A DNA stretch of 64,000 nt from an uncultured Planctomycetaceae bacterium (GTDB lineage: Bacteria; Planctomycetota; Planctomycetia; Isosphaerales; Isosphaeraceae). The translations under genes and the position numbers were made by a program. The stretch spans positions 416,001-480,000 of the forward strand of contig CAWIAD010000001.1 in the NCBI GenBank assembly GCA_963833985.1, given 5' to 3'. A model generated the notes under the pieces. That model did no database searches, had not been told where the DNA came from, and saw nothing but the letters and a program-made list of their open reading frames with translations. This document shows, in pieces, positions 9,416 through 24,678 of this stretch (its first letter is position 1; every line of letters starts with the position of its first letter).

Positions 9416-11698
9416 TTGGCAAGCTCCTTTTCTCTTCATCCCCTCCAATTGATGCTTCCCGCCGATCGCAGCACCTGGATCATCGCCCTGATCGGCAACC
9501 CGAACACGGGGAAGTCCACGCTCTTCGGCGCCCTTTCCGGTATCCCCCAGCGCGTGGGAAACTATCCCGGCGTGACCGTGGAGAAAACGGTTGGTGCGGT
9601 AGCGCACGCCGGCAGCCGCTGGACGCTGGTGGACCTACCGGGAACCTACAGCCTGGCTCCCCGATCTCCCGATGAGATGGTCGCGGTCGACGTCTTGCTG
9701 GGCAGGTCGGCCGATCTTCCTGCACCTGACGTCCTGGTGTGCGTGGTGGCGGCGAACAACCTAGAGCGCAACCTTTACCTCGTCAGCCAGGTGCTCGAGC
9801 TCGGTCTGCCCGTGGTCATCGCTCTGTCCATGCTCGACGTGGCGCACGATGATGGGCTGGAGGTTGATCCCGCCCGCCTGAGCCGTCAGCTCGGCCTTCC
9901 TGTCGTGCCGGTCCAGGCGCATCGCCGCCTGGGATTGGACGAGCTCAAGGACGCAATTGCAGAGGCCGCGAAGCAACCCGGCGCGAGTCCCGCGAGTCCG
10001 TTCCCGGCTGCATTTCGTGCCGAGGTGCAAGAGCTCGAAGCGCTGCTCGCCACAGCCAACGGGCATGCCGGGGAGCACCACTTGCCCCGCTACCTCGTCG
10101 AGCGGTTGTTGCTGGATACCGGCGGCTACATCGAGAGCCACCTTCCCGCTCTGACGAGCCGACCGACCGTGCGCGACATGCTTGCGCAGGCGCGCGAAAG
10201 GTTGAGCCAGGCCGGTTTCCCGGTTCCGGCCGTCGAGACCATGGCCCGCTACGCCTGGGTGTCGCGCGTGCTCGAAGGTGTGGTCGTTCATCCCGCCGAG
10301 CCGGCAAGCACCTGGGGAGACCGCCTCGATGCGATCCTGACGCACCGCGCCTGGGGCCTGCTGGCGCTCGCGGTGGTCTTGCTTCTGGTCTTCAGCGCTG
10401 TCTTCTCCTGGGCACGATGGCCCATGGAAGGGATCGAGGCGGCGATCGGCTGGCTCTCGGTACAGGCCGAGACCCGGCTGCCGGACGGCCCGTTGCGCAG
10501 CTTGCTGGTGGACGGCGTGATTGGGGGCATCGGCGCGGTGGTGATCTTCTTGCCCCAGATCTTCATCCTCTTCCTGATGCTCACGAGCCTGGAAGAATGC
10601 GGATACCTTGCGCGTGCCGCGTACCTGATGGATCGGGTGATGGTCCGGTTCGGGCTCAGCGGCAGGTCGTTCATCCCCTTGCTCTCCTCGTTCGCCTGTG
10701 CGATTCCGGCCGTGATGGCCGCGCGGGTCATCGAGAACCGGCGCGACCGGTTGACCACCATCCTCATCGCCCCGCTCATGAGCTGCTCCGCCCGCTTGCC
10801 GGTGTACACGCTGATGATCGCCGCGTTCATTCCCGACCGCAGGTTCGCGGGGGGACTGATCGGTCTCCAGGGCCTCGTCCTGCTGGCGATGTACGTGCTG
10901 GGCGTGGTGGTGGCCGCCGTTGTGGCACTGGTCCTGAAGCGAACCCTGCTCCGAGGTGCCGCTCCGCCGTTCCTCATGGAGTTGCCCGCCTACAAGTGGC
11001 CCGCGCCGGGGGTCGTGCTGCACCGGATGTTCGACCGGGGCTGGGACTTTCTGCGCAACGCGGGCACGATCATCTTCGCCATCTCCATCGTGATGTGGGG
11101 TGCGCTCTATTACCCGCGCATCTCCCCGCGTGACCTGGCGCCGCTGGCCGCGGAGCAGGCGCGCCTGGAGCACGAGCGCGACGACGCCCGGACCGCCGGC
11201 CACGTGGAGGCAGCGCAGCGCGCGAGCGCCTCTCTGACGGCCATCGCCAACCGCGTCGAGGGCGCCGAGAAGCGCCAGAGCCTGCTTGGCCGCGTGGGCC
11301 GGCTCATCGAGCCCGCCGTGCGGCCGCTCGGTTGGGACTGGCGCATCGGCAGCGCGGTCATCGCCTCGTTCCCCGCACGCGAGGTCGTGGTCGCCACCCT
11401 CGGGGTGATCTTCGACGTCGGCCGCGACATGGATACGCCCGAAGGAACGCAGAAGCTGGGCGACGCTCTTCGCTCGGCCTGCTGGGCCGACACCGGCCGG
11501 CCGCTGTTCGACGTTCCCGTCGCGCTCTCGATCATGGTCTTCTTCGCCCTTTGCGCCGAGTGTGTCTCCACGCTTGCCGTCATCGGCCGCGAGACGGGTG
11601 GCTGGGGCTGGCCCGCGTTCACCTTCTGTTACATGACGGTGCTGGCCTACGCGGGAGCGTTTCTCATCTACCAGGCCACGCACTGGCTGGGAGCGTGA
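9416..11698 (+). CDS. feoB: ferrous iron transport protein B
   Basis: GNPNTGKS, VGNYPGVTVE, DLPGTYSL, LEECGYLARAA, MSCSARLPVY, FLMELPAY, AREVVV. Start could be 9416 or 9452. Confidence 0.97.
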   Translation: MASSFSLHPLQLMLPADRSTWIIALIGNPNTGKSTLFGALSGIPQRVGNYPGVTVEKTVGAVAHAGSRWTLVDLPGTYSLAPRSPDEMVAVDVLLGRSADLPAPDVLVCVVAANNLERNLYLVSQVLELGLPVVIALSMLDVAHDDGLEVDPARLSRQLGLPVVPVQAHRRLGLDELKDAIAEAAKQPGASPASPFPAAFRAEVQELEALLATANGHAGEHHLPRYLVERLLLDTGGYIESHLPALTSRPTVRDMLAQARERLSQAGFPVPAVETMARYAWVSRVLEGVVVHPAEPASTWGDRLDAILTHRAWGLLALAVVLLLVFSAVFSWARWPMEGIEAAIGWLSVQAETRLPDGPLRSLLVDGVIGGIGAVVIFLPQIFILFLMLTSLEECGYLARAAYLMDRVMVRFGLSGRSFIPLLSSFACAIPAVMAARVIENRRDRLTTILIAPLMSCSARLPVYTLMIAAFIPDRRFAGGLIGLQGLVLLAMYVLGVVVAAVVALVLKRTLLRGAAPPFLMELPAYKWPAPGVVLHRMFDRGWDFLRNAGTIIFAISIVMWGALYYPRISPRDLAPLAAEQARLEHERDDARTAGHVEAAQRASASLTAIANRVEGAEKRQSLLGRVGRLIEPAVRPLGWDWRIGSAVIASFPAREVVVATLGVIFDVGRDMDTPEGTQKLGDALRSACWADTGRPLFDVPVALSIMVFFALCAECVSTLAVIGRETGGWGWPAFTFCYMTVLAYAGAFLIYQATHWLGA

Positions 11699-11920: not shown

Positions 11921-12094
11921 ACCCTCACCGGGACGTGAGCGCTGGGCCGGGCCGGAGCCAGCGTTTCCTGAAGCGCATCGGGAGATCCTTCCCGCATGGA
12001 CTAGCCCCTTGACACTGGTGGATGGTGCTTGTTTGATGCATCCAGCGTGCAAGCCTGGAAACAACGCCTCTCCCGAAAGCATCCGCCCACAACC

Positions 12095-13486
12095 ATGAGC
12101 ACTGAAACCAAGACATCTCCCGGCCAGCTTCCCGGATACATCGCCAGCGCAACGCCGAATCCTCCCGCGAACCGAGCGCCGTGGTACAAGAACACCGCGC
12201 CCACCTACGCTGGGATCTTCCTCTGGTTCGTGTTCTGGGACTCGATCGCGGGGAATGCTCTGGCGGCAGGCGGGCTGGGCGCAACGCTTCTGGGGATCTT
12301 GCTGGGTGCGCTCATTTGCCACTTCCTTTTCTACCTGGTGCCCGGCCTGCTGGGCATGAAGACGGGGTTGCCGCTCTACGTCGTGGGCACGTCCACCTTC
12401 GGGGCCATCGGCGGGCTGATCATGCCGGGGCTGCTCATGGGCGTGCTCCAGTTCGGCTGGCTGGGAGTCAATACGTTCGGGTCCTCCGACGCGCTCTCGA
12501 GAGGTCTGGGCGTGCCGGGGCTGTACATTCCGCTCTGCATCGTCTGGGCGCTCGGGGCGGCATTCGTGGGGCTCAAGGGAATTCAGTACGTCGCCAGGAT
12601 CGCCACCTTCCTGCCGCTGATTCCGCTGGCCGTCCTGATCATCGGGCTGGTGCTCTTCGCCGGCTCCGCGGCCAGCTACACGCCTCCGGCTCCCGCGGAG
12701 GGGCAGCCGGGCGGCGGCTTGCAGGCGATCCTGCTCATGGTCTCGGGCATCGTGGGGTTCTTCGCCACGGCCGGCGCGGCGGGCGTTGATTTCGGCATGA
12801 ACAGCCGTGATGGCGACGATGTGCAAAAGGGTGGTTACGTCGGCATCATCGCGGCGATCCTGCTCACGGCCGGCATCGCGGCGATTGCCCTGGCAGGCGC
12901 CCGGGCAGCGGCGGGTGCCGAGGGCGGGGTGGCCCAGGTGACCGATGCGCTCGCGACCAGGCTACCTTCCAGCTTCTACGCCCTGGTGATGATCGGGCTG
13001 ACGCTCGCGGCATTCCCCGGCGCCTGCTTCTCGTCGTTCATCGCGGCGAACAGCTTCAAGACCGTGATGCCGAAGATCAATCCGTTCCTGTCCGTCGGCA
13101 TGGGTGCGATCGTCAGCATCCTGCTGGCCACGATCAGGCTGCCAGGATCGGACAAGCCGATCGCCGCCAACCTGCCCGGCGTCTTCGGCATCATCGGCGC
13201 GTCGTTCGGGCCGATCTGCGGTGCCATGGTGGCCGATTACCTGCTGGCAGGCAGACGCTGGTCCGGTCCGCGCGCCGGATTCAACCCGGCCGGCTGGATC
13301 GCCTGGGCGCTCGGGTTCGTGGTCGGGATCTTGCCCAACCTCCACGGCATGAACGCCGCGATACCCGATGTACCCGCCGCCCCGGTGGCCGCCTTCATCG
13401 TTGGCTTTGCGGTCTACTTCGCCTGTGCCAGGATCGGCCTGATCTCCTCGGTCGTGCCGATGCCGAACCGTGCGGATGCCGCGTGA
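12095..13486 (+). CDS. cytosine permease-like transporter (NCS1 family)
   Basis: About 12 hydrophobic segments; GMKTGLPLYVVGTSTFG, QFGWLGVN, FGPICGAMVADY, GFNPAGWIAW. Confidence 0.88.
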   Translation: MSTETKTSPGQLPGYIASATPNPPANRAPWYKNTAPTYAGIFLWFVFWDSIAGNALAAGGLGATLLGILLGALICHFLFYLVPGLLGMKTGLPLYVVGTSTFGAIGGLIMPGLLMGVLQFGWLGVNTFGSSDALSRGLGVPGLYIPLCIVWALGAAFVGLKGIQYVARIATFLPLIPLAVLIIGLVLFAGSAASYTPPAPAEGQPGGGLQAILLMVSGIVGFFATAGAAGVDFGMNSRDGDDVQKGGYVGIIAAILLTAGIAAIALAGARAAAGAEGGVAQVTDALATRLPSSFYALVMIGLTLAAFPGACFSSFIAANSFKTVMPKINPFLSVGMGAIVSILLATIRLPGSDKPIAANLPGVFGIIGASFGPICGAMVADYLLAGRRWSGPRAGFNPAGWIAWALGFVVGILPNLHGMNAAIPDVPAAPVAAFIVGFAVYFACARIGLISSVVPMPNRADAA

Positions 13487-13501: not shown

Positions 13502-14236
13502 CTACTGCGCGATGAGCGTGGCGATCAACCCGGGCGGCTTCGTTCCTGGAACCACCACGCGGTCGCCGGGGAAGAGCTGGTAGTTCGTGAGCGTGTCGCC
13601 GCGTTCCCGGATCCCGCACCAGTCGATCTTGAGCACCTGGTCGGGAGTGCCCGGCGGGTGCGGACGCACCAGGTAAGCCTTCTCCGGCAGGCTGTTCGAC
13701 CGCAGCCCGGCCTGGAGGATCGCGTCCAGCACGGTCTCGTTCCCCTTGATCGGGAACCGTCCCTGGGTGGTCACCGCGCCCATCACGTAATAGTACTTGC
13801 TCTGCACGTTCGCCAGGCGGACCGAGACCCGATATGGCTGGTCGATCTTCTGTCCCTGTTGCATGGCAACCGCACGGAGCTGCTGCGCGATCTTCTGCTC
13901 GACTTGCTCCAGCGTGAGCCCGACGACATACACATCACCGGCGAAGCCCAGGTCGATCACGCCGTCCTGCTGGACCGTGAAGGAACCTGGATTCCAGTCT
14001 GGTGGCATGGGCCGGACCGCGATGTCCAGCTCATCGGGCGGCTCGACGACGTACGTTGGCATCGTCACCTTGTCGAGCTCGCGGGCCTGCTGAGGGTCGA
14101 TGTAGCCGTGATCGGGGATACGTCTGGCTTCGTGCTTACGTCCGGTCCCCGCACAGCCGGGAACCAGCACGAGCCAGACCGCCGCGACAAGCGCGCAGAT
14201 GCGCCGGGGTTGGGCGGAATGCATCCCTGCGATCAT
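13502..14236 (-). CDS. polysaccharide export family lipoprotein (Wza-like)
   Basis: Lipobox-like LVPGC; YVVEPPDELDI, VQQDGVIDL, GLTLEQVEQKI, GAVTTQG, TVLDAILQAG, LFPGDRVVV. Confidence 0.9.
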   Translation of the reverse strand: MIAGMHSAQPRRICALVAAVWLVLVPGCAGTGRKHEARRIPDHGYIDPQQARELDKVTMPTYVVEPPDELDIAVRPMPPDWNPGSFTVQQDGVIDLGFAGDVYVVGLTLEQVEQKIAQQLRAVAMQQGQKIDQPYRVSVRLANVQSKYYYVMGAVTTQGRFPIKGNETVLDAILQAGLRSNSLPEKAYLVRPHPPGTPDQVLKIDWCGIRERGDTLTNYQLFPGDRVVVPGTKPPGLIATLIAQ

Positions 14237-14469: not shown

Positions 14470-14727
14470 ATGGAAGACATTGAAAAGGTCGTGCATGGCT
14501 ACATCTTGAACGAGTTCTTGCCCGGGGAGGACCCCGCGGAACTGACCTCGCGCACCCCGCTGATCACAGGCGGGATCCTGGACTCGATCACGACGCTCAA
14601 GCTGGTGGTCTTCCTTGAAGAACACTTCGGCATCACGGTCGAGGCCTACGAGGCCGGCGTCGAGCACCTGGACTCGATCGGCCAGATCGCCCGGCTGGTC
14701 GCCGAGAAGGCGAAGGCGGCCGCCTGA
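14470..14727 (+). CDS. acyl carrier protein
   Basis: 85-aa acidic protein with GILDSIT phosphopantetheine site and LVVFLEEHFGI. Confidence 0.92.
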   Translation: MEDIEKVVHGYILNEFLPGEDPAELTSRTPLITGGILDSITTLKLVVFLEEHFGITVEAYEAGVEHLDSIGQIARLVAEKAKAAA

Positions 14728-14756
14728 TACGTGGAAACCTTGGCATGAATTCGCGT

Positions 14757-14874
14757 GTAGGGTGTGCCCAGCGCAGCGACGACGCACCATGCCGTTCCCA
14801 CGAACAGCGTGCCAGGTGTGGATCCGGCTCAATGAGCAATTCGGTGCGTCGTCGCAGCGCTGGACGCACCCTCC
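14757..14874. repeat. GTAG-type REP doublet (REPIN-like)
   Basis: GTAGGGTGTGCCCAGCGCAGCGACGACGCACC (14757-88) and an inverted copy (14843-74) with 4 mismatches, between convergent genes. Confidence 0.85.
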
Positions 14875-14989
14875 CAGCCAGCACCGTGGGACCCACCAAT
14901 CCGGTCGAATCGCCAATGCGGCCAGGGACAATTCCGGTCCATTCGAGGGCGTTCAATCGGCCGGGGCGGCGAGTGAGCGGCCGGGCGGG

Positions 14990-16613
14990 TCAAATCTCTT
15001 GCAGCACCAGGCTGCTCTGGCGCAGGTACTGAACCAGCTCACGGGTGAGCGTGCCGGAATTGTCCATGCGCGGCACCTTGTTCTGGCCGCCCAGCTTGCC
15101 GCGGGACTGCATCCAGGAGTTGAACGATCCCGGCCGGGCGACGATGAGCGACGGCAAGGGGAGGCCCACTCCCGCGCGCGATGGGCCAGGTAGTCGGCGT
15201 TGCGGCGCGCGAGGTCCGCGTCGAGCCGCCGGAGGAAGTCCTCGGGGCCGGCGGGCCTGTCGAGGAACTCGATGACGTACTGGTGATATCCCAGCGCTCC
15301 CTCGAAGACCGGGCCGACATGCCACTCGCGGACGGCCGCGCCGGTACCGGCGGAGGCAGCCGCGATGGCCGCCTCGATCTCCTCGCTGATGAGATGCTCG
15401 CCGAATGCGGAAAGCGTGTATCGCGTCCGCCCCGTGAAGGTGAAAAGCGGCGGGTCGAGCGACTCGAACCGCACCGTGTCGCCGATGATGTGCGCCCACA
15501 TCCCCGCGCACGTGGAGACCACGATCGCGTAATTCACTCCCTGCTGCGCCGACCCCAGCCAGTGCCGTGTCGGGCTCGGCGCATCGAGCTCTGCCACGGG
15601 CACGAACTCGTAGAAGAGCCCGTGGTCAACGATCAGCCGCAAGAGCTCGGTCTTCGGGTCGCCAAACGCGATGAACCCCTCGGAGCAGGGATAGGTTTCC
15701 TGGAGGCGGATCTGCGGACTTCCCAGGATTTTCTCGAAGGCCGAGCGGTACGGGTCGAATTTGACCCCGCCGTGAACGACCAGCTCCAGGTCGGGCCAGA
15801 CCGCGGCGATGCTCGAGGCCCCGGTACGCTCGAGCACGCGTTCGAAGAGCGTCAGCAGCCAGCTCGGAACACCGCTGATCAGGGTGATTCGTTCACGAAT
15901 GCTCAACTCAGCGAAACGCGCCAGCTTCGTCTCCCAGTTGGATTCGAGCGCCAGTGCCACCGGAGGAAATGTGTAGGGCGCAGCAGCGGAGAGAGTTCCA
16001 GGGCCGCGATGCCGCTCAGGTCGCCCTGGCGCACGCCGGGCGCGGGCTCTTCCAGGAGGGCCGTTCCACCCAGGAAGAAGAGGCGGCCGTGAAAGAGCCG
16101 GGAATCCGGCCGGGCAGCCAGGTGCGCGGCCACCATGGTCTGGGCCGCCTTGCGGTTCGAGACGACCATCTCGCGGGAGACCGGGATGTACTTGGTGGCG
16201 CCCTGGGTGGTTCCGCTGGTCAGTGCCAGGAACGGGATGCGGCCCGGCCATGTGAGGTTCTCGAAGACCGGATAGCTGAGGCGGAGATAATCGTCCCAGA
16301 GCGCCTCGTAGGTTCGCAGGGGAACGGCTTTCTGGAACCCGTCGATGCCGTCGATGCGATCGAACCCGTGGTCGCGGCCGAACCGCGTGCCGCGGGCGGT
16401 ACGCACCAGCCTGAGCAGGGTCCGCTCCTGGGCGCTGCGGGCATCGAGCGTCTCCAGGGTAGACCGGCGCAGCCGCGCATGCAGGTGGAACCCGGCATTG
16501 ACCAGGTGCCGGACCGGGCGAGACCCGGCGAGACGTACGACCGTCGCACTGGTGTTCGCAAGCTCCCGGTGCGGCGGTCGATCGACGGACTCAGGCGCTA
16601 CGGTGCTGTTCAT
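14990..16613 (-). CDS. GH3-family acyl-adenylating amide synthetase-like protein (frameshifts near 15975 and 15175)
   Basis: Three consecutive ORF pieces: QERTLLRLV, TRFGRDHGF, ALTSGTT, KYIPVS; SGVPSW, YPCSEGF, FYEFVP, IGDTVRF, FTGRT; GKLGGQNKVPR. Confidence 0.9.
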
Positions 16614-16619
16614 CGCCGG

Positions 16620-17198
16620 TTAGATCTGCGGTTTGACCCTCCGGCAGAAATACGCGCCGGCCGGGGGCAGGTTGCGAGGCTCGAAAGCGAACCGGACCTC
16701 TTCGAAGAACCGGCGGTAGAACCGGAGATAGACCCAGGGAAGCTCGGTGATCTGGTTGAACGTCCCCTCCGGCTTGAGGACCTGGCGAACCACCCGGAAA
16801 AGGTCGAACTGGAGCGCGCGCGGGAAGGAGGGCACGGGTAAGCCGGAGACGATGTAGTCGGCCTGGCCAATGCCCCGGTCGGCCAGAATCGCGGCCAGGT
16901 CGCGCACATCGCCCTCGACGATCTCCAGGCCGCCGGTGCCCGGGAAGCGCTGGCGGAGCAGCGTGCAGAAGTCGGGGTCGCGCTCCAGCACCAGCACTCG
17001 GCAGCCGGGCACGGCACGGGCGGCGAGCACCCGGGTGATCGGTCCGGTACCAGCGCCCAGCTCGACGATCACCCGCGCGCTGGCCCAGTCGATGTTGCGG
17101 ACCGTGGTGCGCGACAGCCAGGGGCTGCTCGGTGCCAGGCTGGCAATGGCGGTTCCCTGCTTGAGGAACTTGCCCAGGAACAGTGTGAAATCGCTCAT
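16620..17198 (-). CDS. PmtA-like lipid N-methyltransferase (candidate OlsG-type ornithine lipid methyltransferase)
   Basis: IASLAPSS, SAM motif VELGAGTGPIT, IVSGLP, RNLPPA; 192 aa. Confidence 0.88.
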   Translation of the reverse strand: MSDFTLFLGKFLKQGTAIASLAPSSPWLSRTTVRNIDWASARVIVELGAGTGPITRVLAARAVPGCRVLVLERDPDFCTLLRQRFPGTGGLEIVEGDVRDLAAILADRGIGQADYIVSGLPVPSFPRALQFDLFRVVRQVLKPEGTFNQITELPWVYLRFYRRFFEEVRFAFEPRNLPPAGAYFCRRVKPQI

Positions 17199-17246
17199 CG
17201 TGACTTTGTGAACCCCGGCTCCGCGGACGCAAGGCCGGCCTCTGGA

Positions 17247-18149
17247 TCACAGGCTCCCGTGTACCGGCCGCGACAGACTGGTGGCGATTCGAGACTTCGG
17301 CTTGGGCCGGCGGGCACGCTCCAGGAAGCGCTGGGGATCCAGCGTCGGGGGAACGACCTTGAGCTTGTCCTTGAGGTAGCGGACCACCAGTTGATTCACC
17401 AGGCGGGCCTTCTCGATCTGTGGCGCGTGGCCGCATTTGGGGATGACGACCTGACGGACCTTGAGGATCGCGTCGGCCGCGCGGATCGACCCGGGCACGT
17501 CGGAGATTACCAGGTCTCCCGCGCCCCAGATCACCAGTGTCGGGTGCGGCACGAGAGGGAGCAGGTCAGCCACCGAGTGGCCCACGGTACCCCGCAGGGT
17601 CCGCAGCACGCCCTTCTTCCACTTGCGGTCCTGAAACTTACGCTCGAACGCCTTGACAAGGTCTTCAGTGGCGAACCGTCCCTTGTGGAAGACCGACTTG
17701 ACCAGCGTGTCATACTGGCTGCGCTTCACGCCTTCCATGGCTGGCAAGTTCTCGTCTCCGTGAAATCCCGACGGGCAGATCAGCACCAGGCGGGAAACGC
17801 GCTCCGGGTGTTTCACGGCGTACTTGAGAATGACCTGGCACCCCAGGCTCGATCCCACCAGGTGGTAGGGAGGACGCTGCACGAACTGGTCCAGGTACAC
17901 CGCGAGCTGGTCGGCCAGGTAGTCGATACTGACCTCGCCTCCCGCATCAATGTGGGCATGCAGCGTATCACCGTCGTACACGAGGATCTCGGGGACCTTC
18001 ACGTCGAAATGGCGCGACAGGTGGCTCCTGTTGGCGAACCAGCTCTCGGGCTGCTCGGCCAGTCCGTTAACCAGGACAAGCGGTGCCCTGCGTTTGTATG
18101 TATGCAGCAGGCGGGGTAGGTCGAACCACTTGCGAACGTTGGGAGGCAT
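17247..18149 (-). CDS. alpha/beta hydrolase
   Basis: LVLVNGL, nucleophile GSSLG, PTLVIWG, CGHAPQIE. Confidence 0.9.
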   Translation of the reverse strand: MPPNVRKWFDLPRLLHTYKRRAPLVLVNGLAEQPESWFANRSHLSRHFDVKVPEILVYDGDTLHAHIDAGGEVSIDYLADQLAVYLDQFVQRPPYHLVGSSLGCQVILKYAVKHPERVSRLVLICPSGFHGDENLPAMEGVKRSQYDTLVKSVFHKGRFATEDLVKAFERKFQDRKWKKGVLRTLRGTVGHSVADLLPLVPHPTLVIWGAGDLVISDVPGSIRAADAILKVRQVVIPKCGHAPQIEKARLVNQLVVRYLKDKLKVVPPTLDPQRFLERARRPKPKSRIATSLSRPVHGSL

Positions 18150-18503: not shown

Positions 18504-19523
18504 ATGAGAGTCTTCATCACCGGCGGTTCGGGTCTCATCGGCCGCCACCTGGCCAGCGCCCTGGTCGGGTCGGGACATCAGCCCGTGATCCTCTCGCGGC
18601 ATGCCGACGCCGTGCGGCGAAAGCCGGAATTCCGCAGCTACCAGGTCGTCCAGGGGGACCCGACCACCGAAGGCCGCTGGCAGGAGGAGGTTGACGGCTG
18701 TGACGCGGTCGTGAACCTCGCGGGCCACAACCTTTTCGGGGATCGCTGGAACAGCGAAGTGAAGCGGAAGATCCGTGACAGCCGGGTCCAGGCTACCGAT
18801 CAGGTGGTCGCGGCAATCCGCAAGGCGCGGACGAAGCCCGGGGTCCTGGTGCAGGCCTCCGCCATCGGCTATTACGGTCCGCATGGTGATGAGGAGCTGG
18901 ATGAAACCAGCCCGTCGGGATCGGATTTCCTGGCCGTGGTCTGTCGCGAGTGGGAGCAGGCCGCCGAGCCGGTCCGGGACATGGGGGTGCGCCAGGCCAC
19001 CGTGCGGGTCGGCATCGTCCTGGCACCCGGAGAAGGGGCCCTGGCCTTCATGACCCCGATTTTCAAGCTCGGGCCGGGAGCGCCCATCGGCAGTGGCGGA
19101 GGCCTGCTGGGCACGGGGCAGCAATGGATGAGCTGGGTGCACGTCGACGACATCGCCGGGCTCTTCCAGATGGCCGTCGAGAACCCGCAGGCCGCGGGTC
19201 CCATCAACGGTACGGCGCCGGCTCCGGTGCGCAACGCCGAGTTTTCCAGGACACTCTCGGCAGTGCTCCGCAAGCCCTACACGCCCTGGCGGTTCTTCGT
19301 GCCGGTGGGACCGCCGGACTTCGTCCTGAAGCTCATGCTCGGTGAGGTCGCCGGGGTGGTCACCGCCGGCCAGAAGGTTCTGCCGGCCAGGGCCGCGGCG
19401 CTCGGCTACCACTTCCGCTTTGCGGATCTTGAAGCGGCGCTGCGAGACGTCTTCCGGCCCAGGACCGCCCCCGCGTCGCGACGTCATGAAACCGCGGCTG
19501 CCGGGGCCGGGTCGCATCACTGA
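18504..19523 (+). CDS. TIGR01777-family NAD(P)-dependent epimerase/oxidoreductase
   Basis: ITGGSGLIG, AVVNLAG, SAIGYYG, CREWE, QQWMSWVHVDD, PVRNAEF. Confidence 0.93.
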   Translation: MRVFITGGSGLIGRHLASALVGSGHQPVILSRHADAVRRKPEFRSYQVVQGDPTTEGRWQEEVDGCDAVVNLAGHNLFGDRWNSEVKRKIRDSRVQATDQVVAAIRKARTKPGVLVQASAIGYYGPHGDEELDETSPSGSDFLAVVCREWEQAAEPVRDMGVRQATVRVGIVLAPGEGALAFMTPIFKLGPGAPIGSGGGLLGTGQQWMSWVHVDDIAGLFQMAVENPQAAGPINGTAPAPVRNAEFSRTLSAVLRKPYTPWRFFVPVGPPDFVLKLMLGEVAGVVTAGQKVLPARAAALGYHFRFADLEAALRDVFRPRTAPASRRHETAAAGAGSHH

Positions 19524-19554: not shown

Positions 19555-20880
<1,326 letters not shown>

Positions 20881-21278
20881 CAAACCACCCCGCGGCCGGC
20901 TGATCGCACGCCCGGAAATGCCGTGCTGCACTCGCGCCTGTCACTGCTGGCCATCATGCCACCACAACAGCGGCGCATGCCTGAGAGTGATGGTCACAAT
21001 AACAGATTGCCCAGAACCTCTCAATTCTGGGCTATGGCAACACCGAACGCCACACAAAGACATGGAAACCGCGGCACGATCCTTTCCCTGTTGCTCACAA
21101 TCGGCCTCACACCGATCTCCAATGGTCGTTCCGCATGCCGGAGGGGCGGGCCGCGGCGACGAGAATGTTAAGACACGCGCCGCGGACTCGACTCCCTCTT
21201 GCGGCCACCCGCCCTTTGACGGGACCATGGAGTTCTGCCCGGGTGGGGCAGGCCACGGCGAATCGGAAAGGAAAAAAC

Positions 21279-22181
21279 ATGGCGGGGCCGGTCGATCCTC
21301 AGCGTCTCTTGCGTGATTTCCCCAGGTGCAATGATTTCTTCGTCGGCATCGATAGCGACGGCTGCGCCTTTGACACGATGGAAGTGAAGCACAAGGAATG
21401 CTTCATCCCCAATATCATCCGGTCCTACCACCTGGCCGCTGTCTCCAAGTATGCCCGTGAGGCGGCCGAGTTCGTCAATCTCTACTCCAGGTGGCGGGGA
21501 ATCAACCGCTTCCCGGCCCTTGTCCTGACCTTCGACCTGCTGATGAAGCGGCCGGAAGTCCTCCGCCGGCACCACGCGATCCCCGCCCTCACCGGCGTGC
21601 GGCGCTGGATCGAGCGCGAGACCAAGCTCTCCAACCCGACGCTCAAGACTGAATCGACCGCCACCGGCGATGCCGACCTGGCCCTGGCGCTGGAATGGAG
21701 CGAGGCCGTGAACCAGACCATTGCCCAGGTGGTTCATGACGTGCCGCCGTTCCCGTTCGTCCGCGAATCGCTCGACAGCATGCAGGGCCGCGCCGATGTG
21801 ATGGTCGTCTCCGCGACCCCCGGAGAGGCGCTCGAGCGCGAATGGGCCGAGCACGGACTCAAGCCACTGGTCAGCCTGATCGCGGGACAGGAACTCGGCA
21901 GCAAGCGCGAGCACCTCGCGCTGGCGGCGGTCGGGCACTATGAGCCGCACCGCATTCTCATGGTCGGGGACGCACCCGGAGATCTCCAGGCCGCCGAGGC
22001 CAACGGGGTCCTCTTCTATCCCATCGACCCCGGCTTCGAGGATGATTCCTGGCAGCGCTTCTTCGAGGAGGGACTGCCGCGCTTCCTTGCCGAGAATTAC
22101 CAGGGCGACTACATGTCGGCCCAGATCGCGCGGTTCCAGCGGCTGCTCCCCGAAACCCCGCCCTGGCAGCAAGCAGGCTGA
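21279..22181 (+). CDS. HAD-superfamily hydrolase
   Basis: Motif I GIDSDGCAFDT, VVSAT, K, MVGDAPGD; AAGGA RBS. Confidence 0.88.
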   Translation: MAGPVDPQRLLRDFPRCNDFFVGIDSDGCAFDTMEVKHKECFIPNIIRSYHLAAVSKYAREAAEFVNLYSRWRGINRFPALVLTFDLLMKRPEVLRRHHAIPALTGVRRWIERETKLSNPTLKTESTATGDADLALALEWSEAVNQTIAQVVHDVPPFPFVRESLDSMQGRADVMVVSATPGEALEREWAEHGLKPLVSLIAGQELGSKREHLALAAVGHYEPHRILMVGDAPGDLQAAEANGVLFYPIDPGFEDDSWQRFFEEGLPRFLAENYQGDYMSAQIARFQRLLPETPPWQQAG

Positions 22182-23058: not shown

Positions 23059-24441
23059 TTACTGGAATCGCTCCGGGTCGGCGGCGAGGTAGTGAGCGCG
23101 GATCTCGTTCCGGGTGAAGTGGCTCTCGGAGCCCGGGTGGTTGCGCGCCGGCAGCATGGCGTTCAGGCACATTGCGCGGATCGGTCTTTCGAGCCGGAGA
23201 ATCCGCTCACGGCCGTCCGCGATCCAGGCCGCGGGCTCCAGCAGCGGTCTCATATCGGCGCTGATCCAGTCAAAATCGTGCGGCAGGGCGAGCCGGCCGT
23301 GGCGCAGGGCCAGGCCCGTGGCGAGCGTCTCACCGCCAAGCCACAGCAGAACCAGGGCGGAGACAAACGCGATCGAGGTGCTCCGGAATCGCCGCGACTG
23401 GACGGCATGGTCCAGGAGCGAGCCCATCAAGAGCGAGGCGACCAGGACCAGCGGGATCGCGCGTCGGACGCCCGTCGGGGTTGCAATGCTGTACAGGGCG
23501 GCGGAGCCCAGGGCAAGACACCAGAACGGCCACCAGGCGTTCGCCCTGCGTGTCGATGCGTATGCCGCCACGGCCAGCAACGGGATGAGCACAAACCCGC
23601 CGAGCGAAGGGCTCGTCGAGAAGAAGTAATAGCTGTGGGGCCTGTAGAACGACTCGTACATGAGCCGCAGGAACAGGATGGGCGAGCGCCCGAGCTCGAG
23701 CGTACCCCCTCCCCGGTAGGCATTCGCCGTGTTCACCCACCAGAGACCCGGCAACGACAGGACGGCGGCGAAGATGGCACCCGCCGAGATCGCCACGAGC
23801 AGCGATCGAGTGCTCCGCTCACGCCAGGCCCTCCAGCCCATCACGCCGAAGACCGGCGGCACGAACGCCGCACCGCCGCCGTAGACCAGCACCCCGAACG
23901 CCAGCAAGGCCGCGGCCAGGGGCCAGGTCCGGATCCGCGCGTTCCGGCCGATCACGAGGTAGAGCGCCAGCCCGCCGAAGAGCACTTCCAGCCCGGCCTC
24001 CATGCCCAGCCACGAGAACGACGAGAACCCCGGAAACACAAGGAGGCAAAAGCCGGAAAAGGCGCTGGCCGTACGGCTCAGGCCGAGCCGGCGCGCCAGG
24101 AGATAGGTGAGCGGTCCGGCCAGGGCCATGAGCACGGCCTTCATCTCGCGGCCGTACCAGAGGCCCGGATCCGGATGGACCGCATGCGCCAGCGCGAAGA
24201 GCAGGTGTCCGCCCAGGTTCGTGTCATAGCGGCAATGCTGGAGCCGGAGCGAGAGGAACACGACGTCCTTGAACGCGACCGAAGCCTCCTCGCCCGTGAG
24301 CCAGTTCTGGCGGTTGGCGCAATGCACGAGCGCCAGGTTGATGGCCAGGCCCGCGGCGCAGAGGGCCAGGCAGAGGCAGGCGTCGAGCCGCGGCAATTTT
24401 GCCGGCAGTTGCGGCGCGGTGTGCTCCATCACGTCCGCCAT
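23059..24441 (-). CDS. GT-C fold (ArnT/PMT-like) membrane glycosyltransferase
   Basis: Multi-TM; first loop WLTGEE; PLTYLLARRLG. Start uncertain (24441-24525). Confidence 0.7.
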   Translation of the reverse strand: MADVMEHTAPQLPAKLPRLDACLCLALCAAGLAINLALVHCANRQNWLTGEEASVAFKDVVFLSLRLQHCRYDTNLGGHLLFALAHAVHPDPGLWYGREMKAVLMALAGPLTYLLARRLGLSRTASAFSGFCLLVFPGFSSFSWLGMEAGLEVLFGGLALYLVIGRNARIRTWPLAAALLAFGVLVYGGGAAFVPPVFGVMGWRAWRERSTRSLLVAISAGAIFAAVLSLPGLWWVNTANAYRGGGTLELGRSPILFLRLMYESFYRPHSYYFFSTSPSLGGFVLIPLLAVAAYASTRRANAWWPFWCLALGSAALYSIATPTGVRRAIPLVLVASLLMGSLLDHAVQSRRFRSTSIAFVSALVLLWLGGETLATGLALRHGRLALPHDFDWISADMRPLLEPAAWIADGRERILRLERPIRAMCLNAMLPARNHPGSESHFTRNEIRAHYLAADPERFQ

Positions 24442-24678
24442 TGGTGGCATCTCCCGGAGAGCGGCGAGCCGGGCGAAGAACCTTGCCAGCGGCCAATCCG
24501 TGGACGCGAGGCCCGCACGCGGCACTCATCTTGGAGCGATCTTCGCGGCCTGTCAACGCGACTGGGGCCGCGTGATCCCCCGGTCCAGAAGATGACCCGC
24601 AACCAGACGCGTGGCGATGCTTTCCCCGCGCGCTTCCCGAGCATGCTCCGAAAGGTTCCAGGCGCGCGGCGCATCGGA

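Follow-up and report, generated by a model that had tools for sequence, protein, structure and literature searches.

Results

Genes at the locus

The window, as we call the whole 64,000-nucleotide stretch analysed here (contig CAWIAD010000001.1, positions 416,001 to 480,000, from assembly GCA_963833985.1 of an uncultured Planctomycetaceae bacterium), contains three genes that lie close together on the minus strand in the same orientation: an alpha/beta hydrolase (18149..17247), a methyltransferase (17198..16620) and a gene of the GH3 family (16613..14990), separated by 48 bp (17199-17246) and 6 bp (16614-16619), respectively. A fourth gene, for an acyl carrier protein (ACP) of 85 amino acids (aa) at 14470..14727 on the plus strand, is convergent with the GH3 gene, with 262 bp between the two. 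The coordinates confirm this arrangement, which had been described in an earlier sequence-only reading. That reading took the locus for a candidate amino-lipid pathway, and while the amino-lipid chemistry is supported, the pathway is not new. Namely, it is the published OlsH/OlsI/OlsG pathway, and Rivera-Najera et al. 2025 describe the same operon, Sinac_1599-1601, in Singulisphaera acidiphila (PMC12493201). Judging from the comparisons below, we are highly confident that the three genes are the olsI-olsG-olsH ornithine-lipid operon, which by orthology would likely make an N-methylated ornithine lipid.

The first gene, olsI (17247..18149, minus strand), encodes a 300-aa protein with the alpha/beta-hydrolase fold, by homology the O-acyltransferase that would convert lyso-ornithine lipid into ornithine lipid. 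It scores 467 bits against the NCBIfam model NF052614 (cut-off 385), is 72% identical to OlsI of S. acidiphila and occurs as a single copy in the genome. All 13 homologues aligned share Ser101, Asp212 and His241, which, from general knowledge of the fold, we take to be the catalytic triad. The second, olsG (16620..17198, minus strand), encodes the predicted ornithine-lipid N-methyltransferase of 192 aa, which reaches 357.4 bits against NF041658 (cut-off 350) and is the sole match in the genome for OlsG of S. acidiphila (76% identity). The sequence-only reading had called this methyltransferase PmtA-like and had suggested comparing it with both OlsG and PmtA; the comparison speaks for OlsG, and a PmtA identity is ruled out, the score against the PmtA model NF045881 being 60.9 bits at a cut-off of 250. 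The OlsG paper, as cited elsewhere, is reportedly Escobedo-Hinojosa et al. 2015.

The third gene, olsH (14990..16613, minus strand), the predicted GH3-family lyso-ornithine-lipid synthetase, is spread over three frames in the assembly. Its pieces tile positions 3-196, 190-464 and 461-520 of the 524 positions of NF052613, with 321, 514 and 89 bits, and it is because of the frameshifts that no single piece attains the whole-protein cut-off of 620 bits. The gene carries the N-terminal, middle and C-terminal GH3 Pfam domains, and its pieces are 66, 73 and 56% identical to OlsH of S. acidiphila. In particular, nucleotide-binding motifs 1 and 2 are identical in the two proteins, motif 1 including the essential Ser115, and motif 3 differs by two substitutions. 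When OlsI, OlsG and OlsH of S. acidiphila are used as queries, the window genes are their best matches in the whole genome. Presence or absence of olsB and olsF had also been proposed as a check: PF13444, the domain common to aminolipid N-acyltransferases (PMC11631085), has 0 matches in this 96%-complete genome, and the control search was positive in 2 of 14 genomes. Between 14200 and 18550, a scan for promoters and terminators found 0 promoter-like sites and 3 terminator-like ones, which is no excess over the means for shuffled sequence (0.5 and 2.1).

Conservation of the operon

Our class-level survey covered 151 genomes, each at least 90% complete, including 36 from the family of the window (f1) and 31 from a second family (f5), which, judging by similar identities, is probably Gemmataceae. 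A match to olsH above the cut-off is found in 61 of the 151 genomes, of which 32 are among the 36 of f1 and 25 among the 31 of f5; the f1 copies are full-length and single-frame in 32 of 32 cases, and the other 4 of the 36 f1 genomes gave no olsH match. Synteny in relatives, another check put forward by the sequence-only reading, holds as well. Namely, all 20 loci retrieved for the best olsG matches keep the order olsI-olsG-olsH (one of them is interrupted by a contig end), an olsG match of any kind being present in 35 genomes among the 41 searched. Since the order holds in all 20 of these loci and in S. acidiphila, the gene arrangement is not due to chance. Homologues of olsG across Isosphaeraceae and Gemmataceae were already reported in 2017 (PMC5352709).

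Two variations on the arrangement were seen in the survey. In three genomes from other families (G102, G124 and G148; loci L154, L155 and L156), olsI is followed directly by olsH and olsG is not in the retrieved stretch; for these an unmethylated ornithine lipid is therefore predicted. Another genome carries an additional full-length olsH (G114:C2:768196-769746, locus L113), unaccompanied by olsI or olsG and followed by genes for an SDR, a homoserine dehydrogenase, a phosphoglycerate-mutase-like protein and an aspartokinase-like protein.

Two breaks in olsH

Two single-base deletions spread the GH3 gene over three frames, which bears out the broken state that the sequence-only reading had implied in speaking of a repaired operon. 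Alignment to four relatives places the deletions near window positions 15976 and 15177, and both sites fall in short repeats, one a run of C and the other of CG. Are these errors of the assembly, or has the gene decayed? From indirect evidence, we consider it likely that they are assembly errors. Across 493 codons no in-frame stop occurs, and the ratio of nonsynonymous to synonymous substitution rates (dN/dS) is 0.13-0.19 against the four relatives, as compared with 0.09-0.15 among those relatives' intact copies. Purifying selection is strong in all three segments of olsH, and neither olsI nor olsG is broken, both being under constraint. Frame changes occur elsewhere in this assembly too. From twenty 20-kb stretches of the near-complete relative G004 we obtained 147 open reading frames, 132 of them with matches, and 68 orthologue-like test genes remained after filtering at 55% identity and 70% coverage. 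A frame change is found in 12 of these 68, with 14 changes in 91 kb, or 0.15 per kb, and some of the 12 could be true pseudogenes. The valS gene is likewise split over two frames (G000:C1:1385901-1388656, G000 being this genome). With valS and 12 of the 68 test genes changed in frame, broken genes in this genome need to be treated with caution.

That said, several observations weigh against assembly error, and some of them lean toward a different account, in which the operon is the same, olsH is a real and very recent pseudogene, ornithine lipids have just been lost and olsG methylates other lipids. Three of the five essential genes we looked at, namely rpoB, rpoC and dnaE, are unbroken; alaS, with a match that reaches only position 723 of the 847 in its model, may or may not be so. 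Two breaks in one 1.6-kb gene are above the genome average, with a Poisson probability of 0.026 at the measured error rate. The dN of olsH is slightly raised, at 0.12 between the window and G011 as against 0.08 between G002 and G011; the corresponding excess in olsI, by contrast, is small (0.079 as against 0.069), and a recent relaxation of olsH is therefore possible. Loss of the gene does occur, since 4 of the 36 f1 genomes gave no olsH match. We nevertheless judge a pseudogene improbable: a decayed olsH would have to combine two deletions with the lack of stops and with strong purifying selection in every segment, next to two intact and constrained partners, in an assembly that breaks valS and 12 of the 68 test genes as well.

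A programmed frameshift was also entertained and is ruled out by the single-frame copies in 32 of 32 f1 genomes; it is further disfavoured in that assemblies of lower quality, G024 for example, carry their breaks at different positions.

The convergent ACP gene

The ACP gene (14470..14727, plus strand), a convergent neighbour of a family-wide type, scores 152 bits against NF052616, the 'ornithine lipid biosynthesis acyl carrier protein' (cut-off 130), and its attachment-site Ser39 is invariant in the alignment. Could it be a dedicated fourth member of the operon, the acyl donor that OlsI requires? The NF052616 label speaks for this, as does proximity: in the 31 f1 genomes with both genes, the ACP lies less than 500 bp from olsH in 17 and 0.5-5 kb away in 4, so that 21 of the 31 have the two genes no more than 5 kb apart. 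In addition, the S. acidiphila paper leaves the OlsI donor open, giving it as 'X', 'acyl-CoA or acyl-ACP' (PMC12493201), where CoA is coenzyme A.

We find a dedicated role unlikely all the same, in the first place on account of how the ACP is distributed. This ACP type is found in 35 of the 36 f1 genomes, and all 4 f1 genomes that gave no olsH match retain it; the yfcH-like gene in three of these stands directly beside the ACP, in the usual place of the ols genes, as if these had been excised. In f5, 0 of 31 genomes have the ACP over the cut-off (there is one weak match, at 45 bits), though 25 of the 31 carry full-length olsH. In other words, the presence of the ACP does not follow that of olsH across genomes, and the distribution does not support the link between ACP and operon that the sequence-only reading had implied. 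Of the 31 f1 genomes with both, 2 have the ACP on the contig of olsH but far from it, and 8 have the two genes on different contigs. It should be noted that all these genomes are kin, so that the counts on neighbourhood and distribution are not independent events.

The neighbourhood points the same way. Namely, the ACP lies on the strand opposite to the operon, and in 25 of 35 f1 loci it is preceded by a co-oriented gene of the PF01663 phosphodiesterase family; in the other 10, as in the window, that gene is not beside the ACP, which is conserved nonetheless. In 32 of the 35 loci a divergent wza-like gene lies no more than 3 kb from the ACP, one of the three misses being at a contig end, and in S. 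acidiphila the ACP stands behind the PF01663 gene, 2.8 kb from olsH. As for the biochemistry, OlsH of S. acidiphila requires neither ACP nor CoA in vitro, and OlsH and OlsI together yielded ornithine lipid in an E. coli extract without this ACP (PMC12493201). A housekeeping AcpP is encoded elsewhere in the genome. The passages on the pathway found in PMC12493201 and PMC12971839 do not mention the ACP, and a search of the literature, covering titles and main-text passages, returned no title on it.

The ACP is thus probably an old neighbour at the level of the family, belonging to the next unit and no dedicated ornithine-lipid part, while OlsI may use it where it is present. More tentatively, we can imagine that the ACP is mislabelled and is the core of an undescribed family-wide unit, independent of olsIGH, in which, together with a soluble PF01663 enzyme and divergent from the wza-like gene, it would hold an acyl or aminoacyl group with which the cell envelope is modified; we regard this as possible rather than probable. 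The PF01663 gene encodes a protein of 520-570 aa with no strong hydrophobic segment (L109:9570-11156, L112:9377-11008 and L172:12314 onward), for which we found no NCBIfam model at 1e-30 and no match to a solved (PDB) structure. Two other partners for the ACP were considered and set aside. An adenylation enzyme was rejected, as the co-oriented gene is the PF01663 gene instead, and AMP-binding neighbours are found only beside distant ACP paralogues (33-34% identity). Nor did we retain a role for the ACP in the second GH3 cluster described below, since that cluster already includes an ACP-like gene.

Neighbouring genes and a second GH3 cluster

Upstream of the operon and divergent from olsI lies a gene for a YfcH/TIGR01777-family oxidoreductase (18504-19523, plus strand), followed by a Ser/Thr kinase gene (19555-20931, minus strand); the yfcH-olsI arrangement is found again in most of the same-family loci retrieved. 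On the other side, a Wza-like polysaccharide export gene (13502-14236, minus strand) is divergent from the ACP. The remaining neighbours are ordinary: a FeoB iron transporter (9416-11698, plus), an NCS1-like permease (12029-13486, plus), a HAD-like hydrolase (21135-22181, plus) and a PMT-like membrane glycosyltransferase (23059-24525, minus).

Outside the window, the genome holds a further GH3 gene (G000:C1:1662827-1664515), which is 25% identical to OlsH of S. acidiphila and scores 109 bits against the OlsH model, far under its cut-off. It belongs to a cluster at G000:C1:1657640-1666200 (loci L262 and L091) with an ACP, two ketosynthase-domain genes, a membrane-anchored alpha/beta hydrolase and a DUF1571 gene. 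Matches to this second GH3 occur in 112 of the 151 class genomes, more than for olsH (61 of 151), and a hydrolase gene lies within 1.5 kb of it in 20 of the 25 loci examined, our own genome being counted among them.

Discussion

Proposed pathway and its alternatives

Gene identity, order, motifs and orthology are established for the window. The three enzyme activities are carried over by orthology from S. acidiphila, where the roles rest on cell-free assays, liquid chromatography-mass spectrometry and a knockout, and production of the lipid by this organism is what we infer from them. In the passages of the 2025 paper on the pathway, OlsH uses a free fatty acid, ornithine, ATP and Mg to form N-acyl-ornithine, preferring ornithine over lysine and arginine, with which it shows minor activity, and requiring Ser115; OlsI converts the lyso-lipid into ornithine lipid in an E. 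coli extract; deletion of olsH abolishes the trimethyl-ornithine lipid; and the methylated ornithine lipids of the operon are phosphorus-free membrane lipids (PMC12493201). A 2026 review repeats the OlsHI pathway and adds phosphatidylethanolamine as a substrate of OlsG (PMC12971839).

By orthology, the pathway in our organism would run in three steps. In the first, OlsH would adenylate a fatty acid and join it to ornithine by an amide bond, giving lyso-ornithine lipid. In the second, OlsI would add another, ester-linked fatty acid, presumably through an acyl-enzyme intermediate on the Ser-His-Asp triad. In the third, OlsG would methylate the delta-amino group to give the trimethyl-ornithine lipid. 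Much of this had been anticipated in the sequence-only reading, which had GH3 form an N-acyl-amino-acid amide independently of OlsB and OlsF, the alpha/beta protein release or transfer acyl groups, and the methyltransferase finish the head group. The first and third of these roles are now established for the S. acidiphila orthologues, and for the alpha/beta protein the orthologue transfers an acyl group (PMC12493201).

Two points tell against a simple assignment of the product. The margin of OlsG over the NF041658 cut-off is only 7 bits and, what is more, OlsG is reported to methylate phosphatidylethanolamine as well (PMC12971839), so that the product here could include phosphatidylcholine. 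That the operon makes another amino lipid altogether, such as a lysine lipid, or that the methyltransferase is only a PmtA-type enzyme acting on phosphatidylethanolamine, strikes us as very improbable: the minor lysine and arginine activity of S. acidiphila OlsH (PMC12493201) and the use of phosphatidylethanolamine by OlsG would allow for it, but the identity of 56-76% to the assayed enzymes, the identical gene order and a PmtA score far under the cut-off all argue against it.

Since the olsI-olsG-olsH pathway was published in 2025 for a related planctomycete (PMC12493201), our finding is one already known, and the operon of the window is one more copy of a characterised pathway that curated models cover. 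What the analysis adds is small and lies beside it. Namely, the comparison of genomes suggests that the NCBIfam label ties the ACP too closely to OlsHI, a point relevant to the search for the acyl donor of OlsI; attention is also drawn to another GH3 cluster of this genome, more widespread than olsH.

Comparison with known systems

The closest system is the operon of S. acidiphila itself, examined here in strain DSM 18658 (locus L172), with the same three genes in the same order and on the same strand, a divergent yfcH-like gene upstream and no OlsB/OlsF-type domain found; its OlsH has 526 aa and contains the three motifs printed in PMC12493201. The two loci differ in that olsH of the window is split by two 1-base deletions, and in that 262 bp separate the ACP from olsH here, as against 2.8 kb in S. 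acidiphila. What is more, S. acidiphila has a phosphodiesterase gene before the ACP and the window lacks one at that position, the best match of this phosphodiesterase elsewhere in our genome having only 38-51% identity, in two frames.

The other systems are more distant. PmtA has a related fold, dependent on S-adenosylmethionine, and OlsG likewise can methylate phosphatidylethanolamine (PMC12971839), but by its score the window methyltransferase is not a member of the PmtA family. The OlsBA and OlsF pathways reach the same end product via two acylations (PMC12493201, PMC12971839), yet their enzymes are unrelated to those studied here (PMC12493201), and OlsB and OlsA draw their acyl groups from acyl-AcpP (PMC12971839). 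In the paper on stieleriacines, N-acyl tyrosines are ascribed to NasY, and GH3 goes unmentioned in the passages concerned (PMC12479983). Finally, the plant GH3 acyl-acid amido synthetases, such as JAR1/AtGH3.11, share with OlsH the GH3 domains and the chemistry of adenylation followed by amide formation. At approximately 21% identity, however, they differ in what they make: the plant enzymes form a hormone conjugate, whereas OlsH joins a fatty acid and ornithine on the way to a membrane lipid (PMC12493201).

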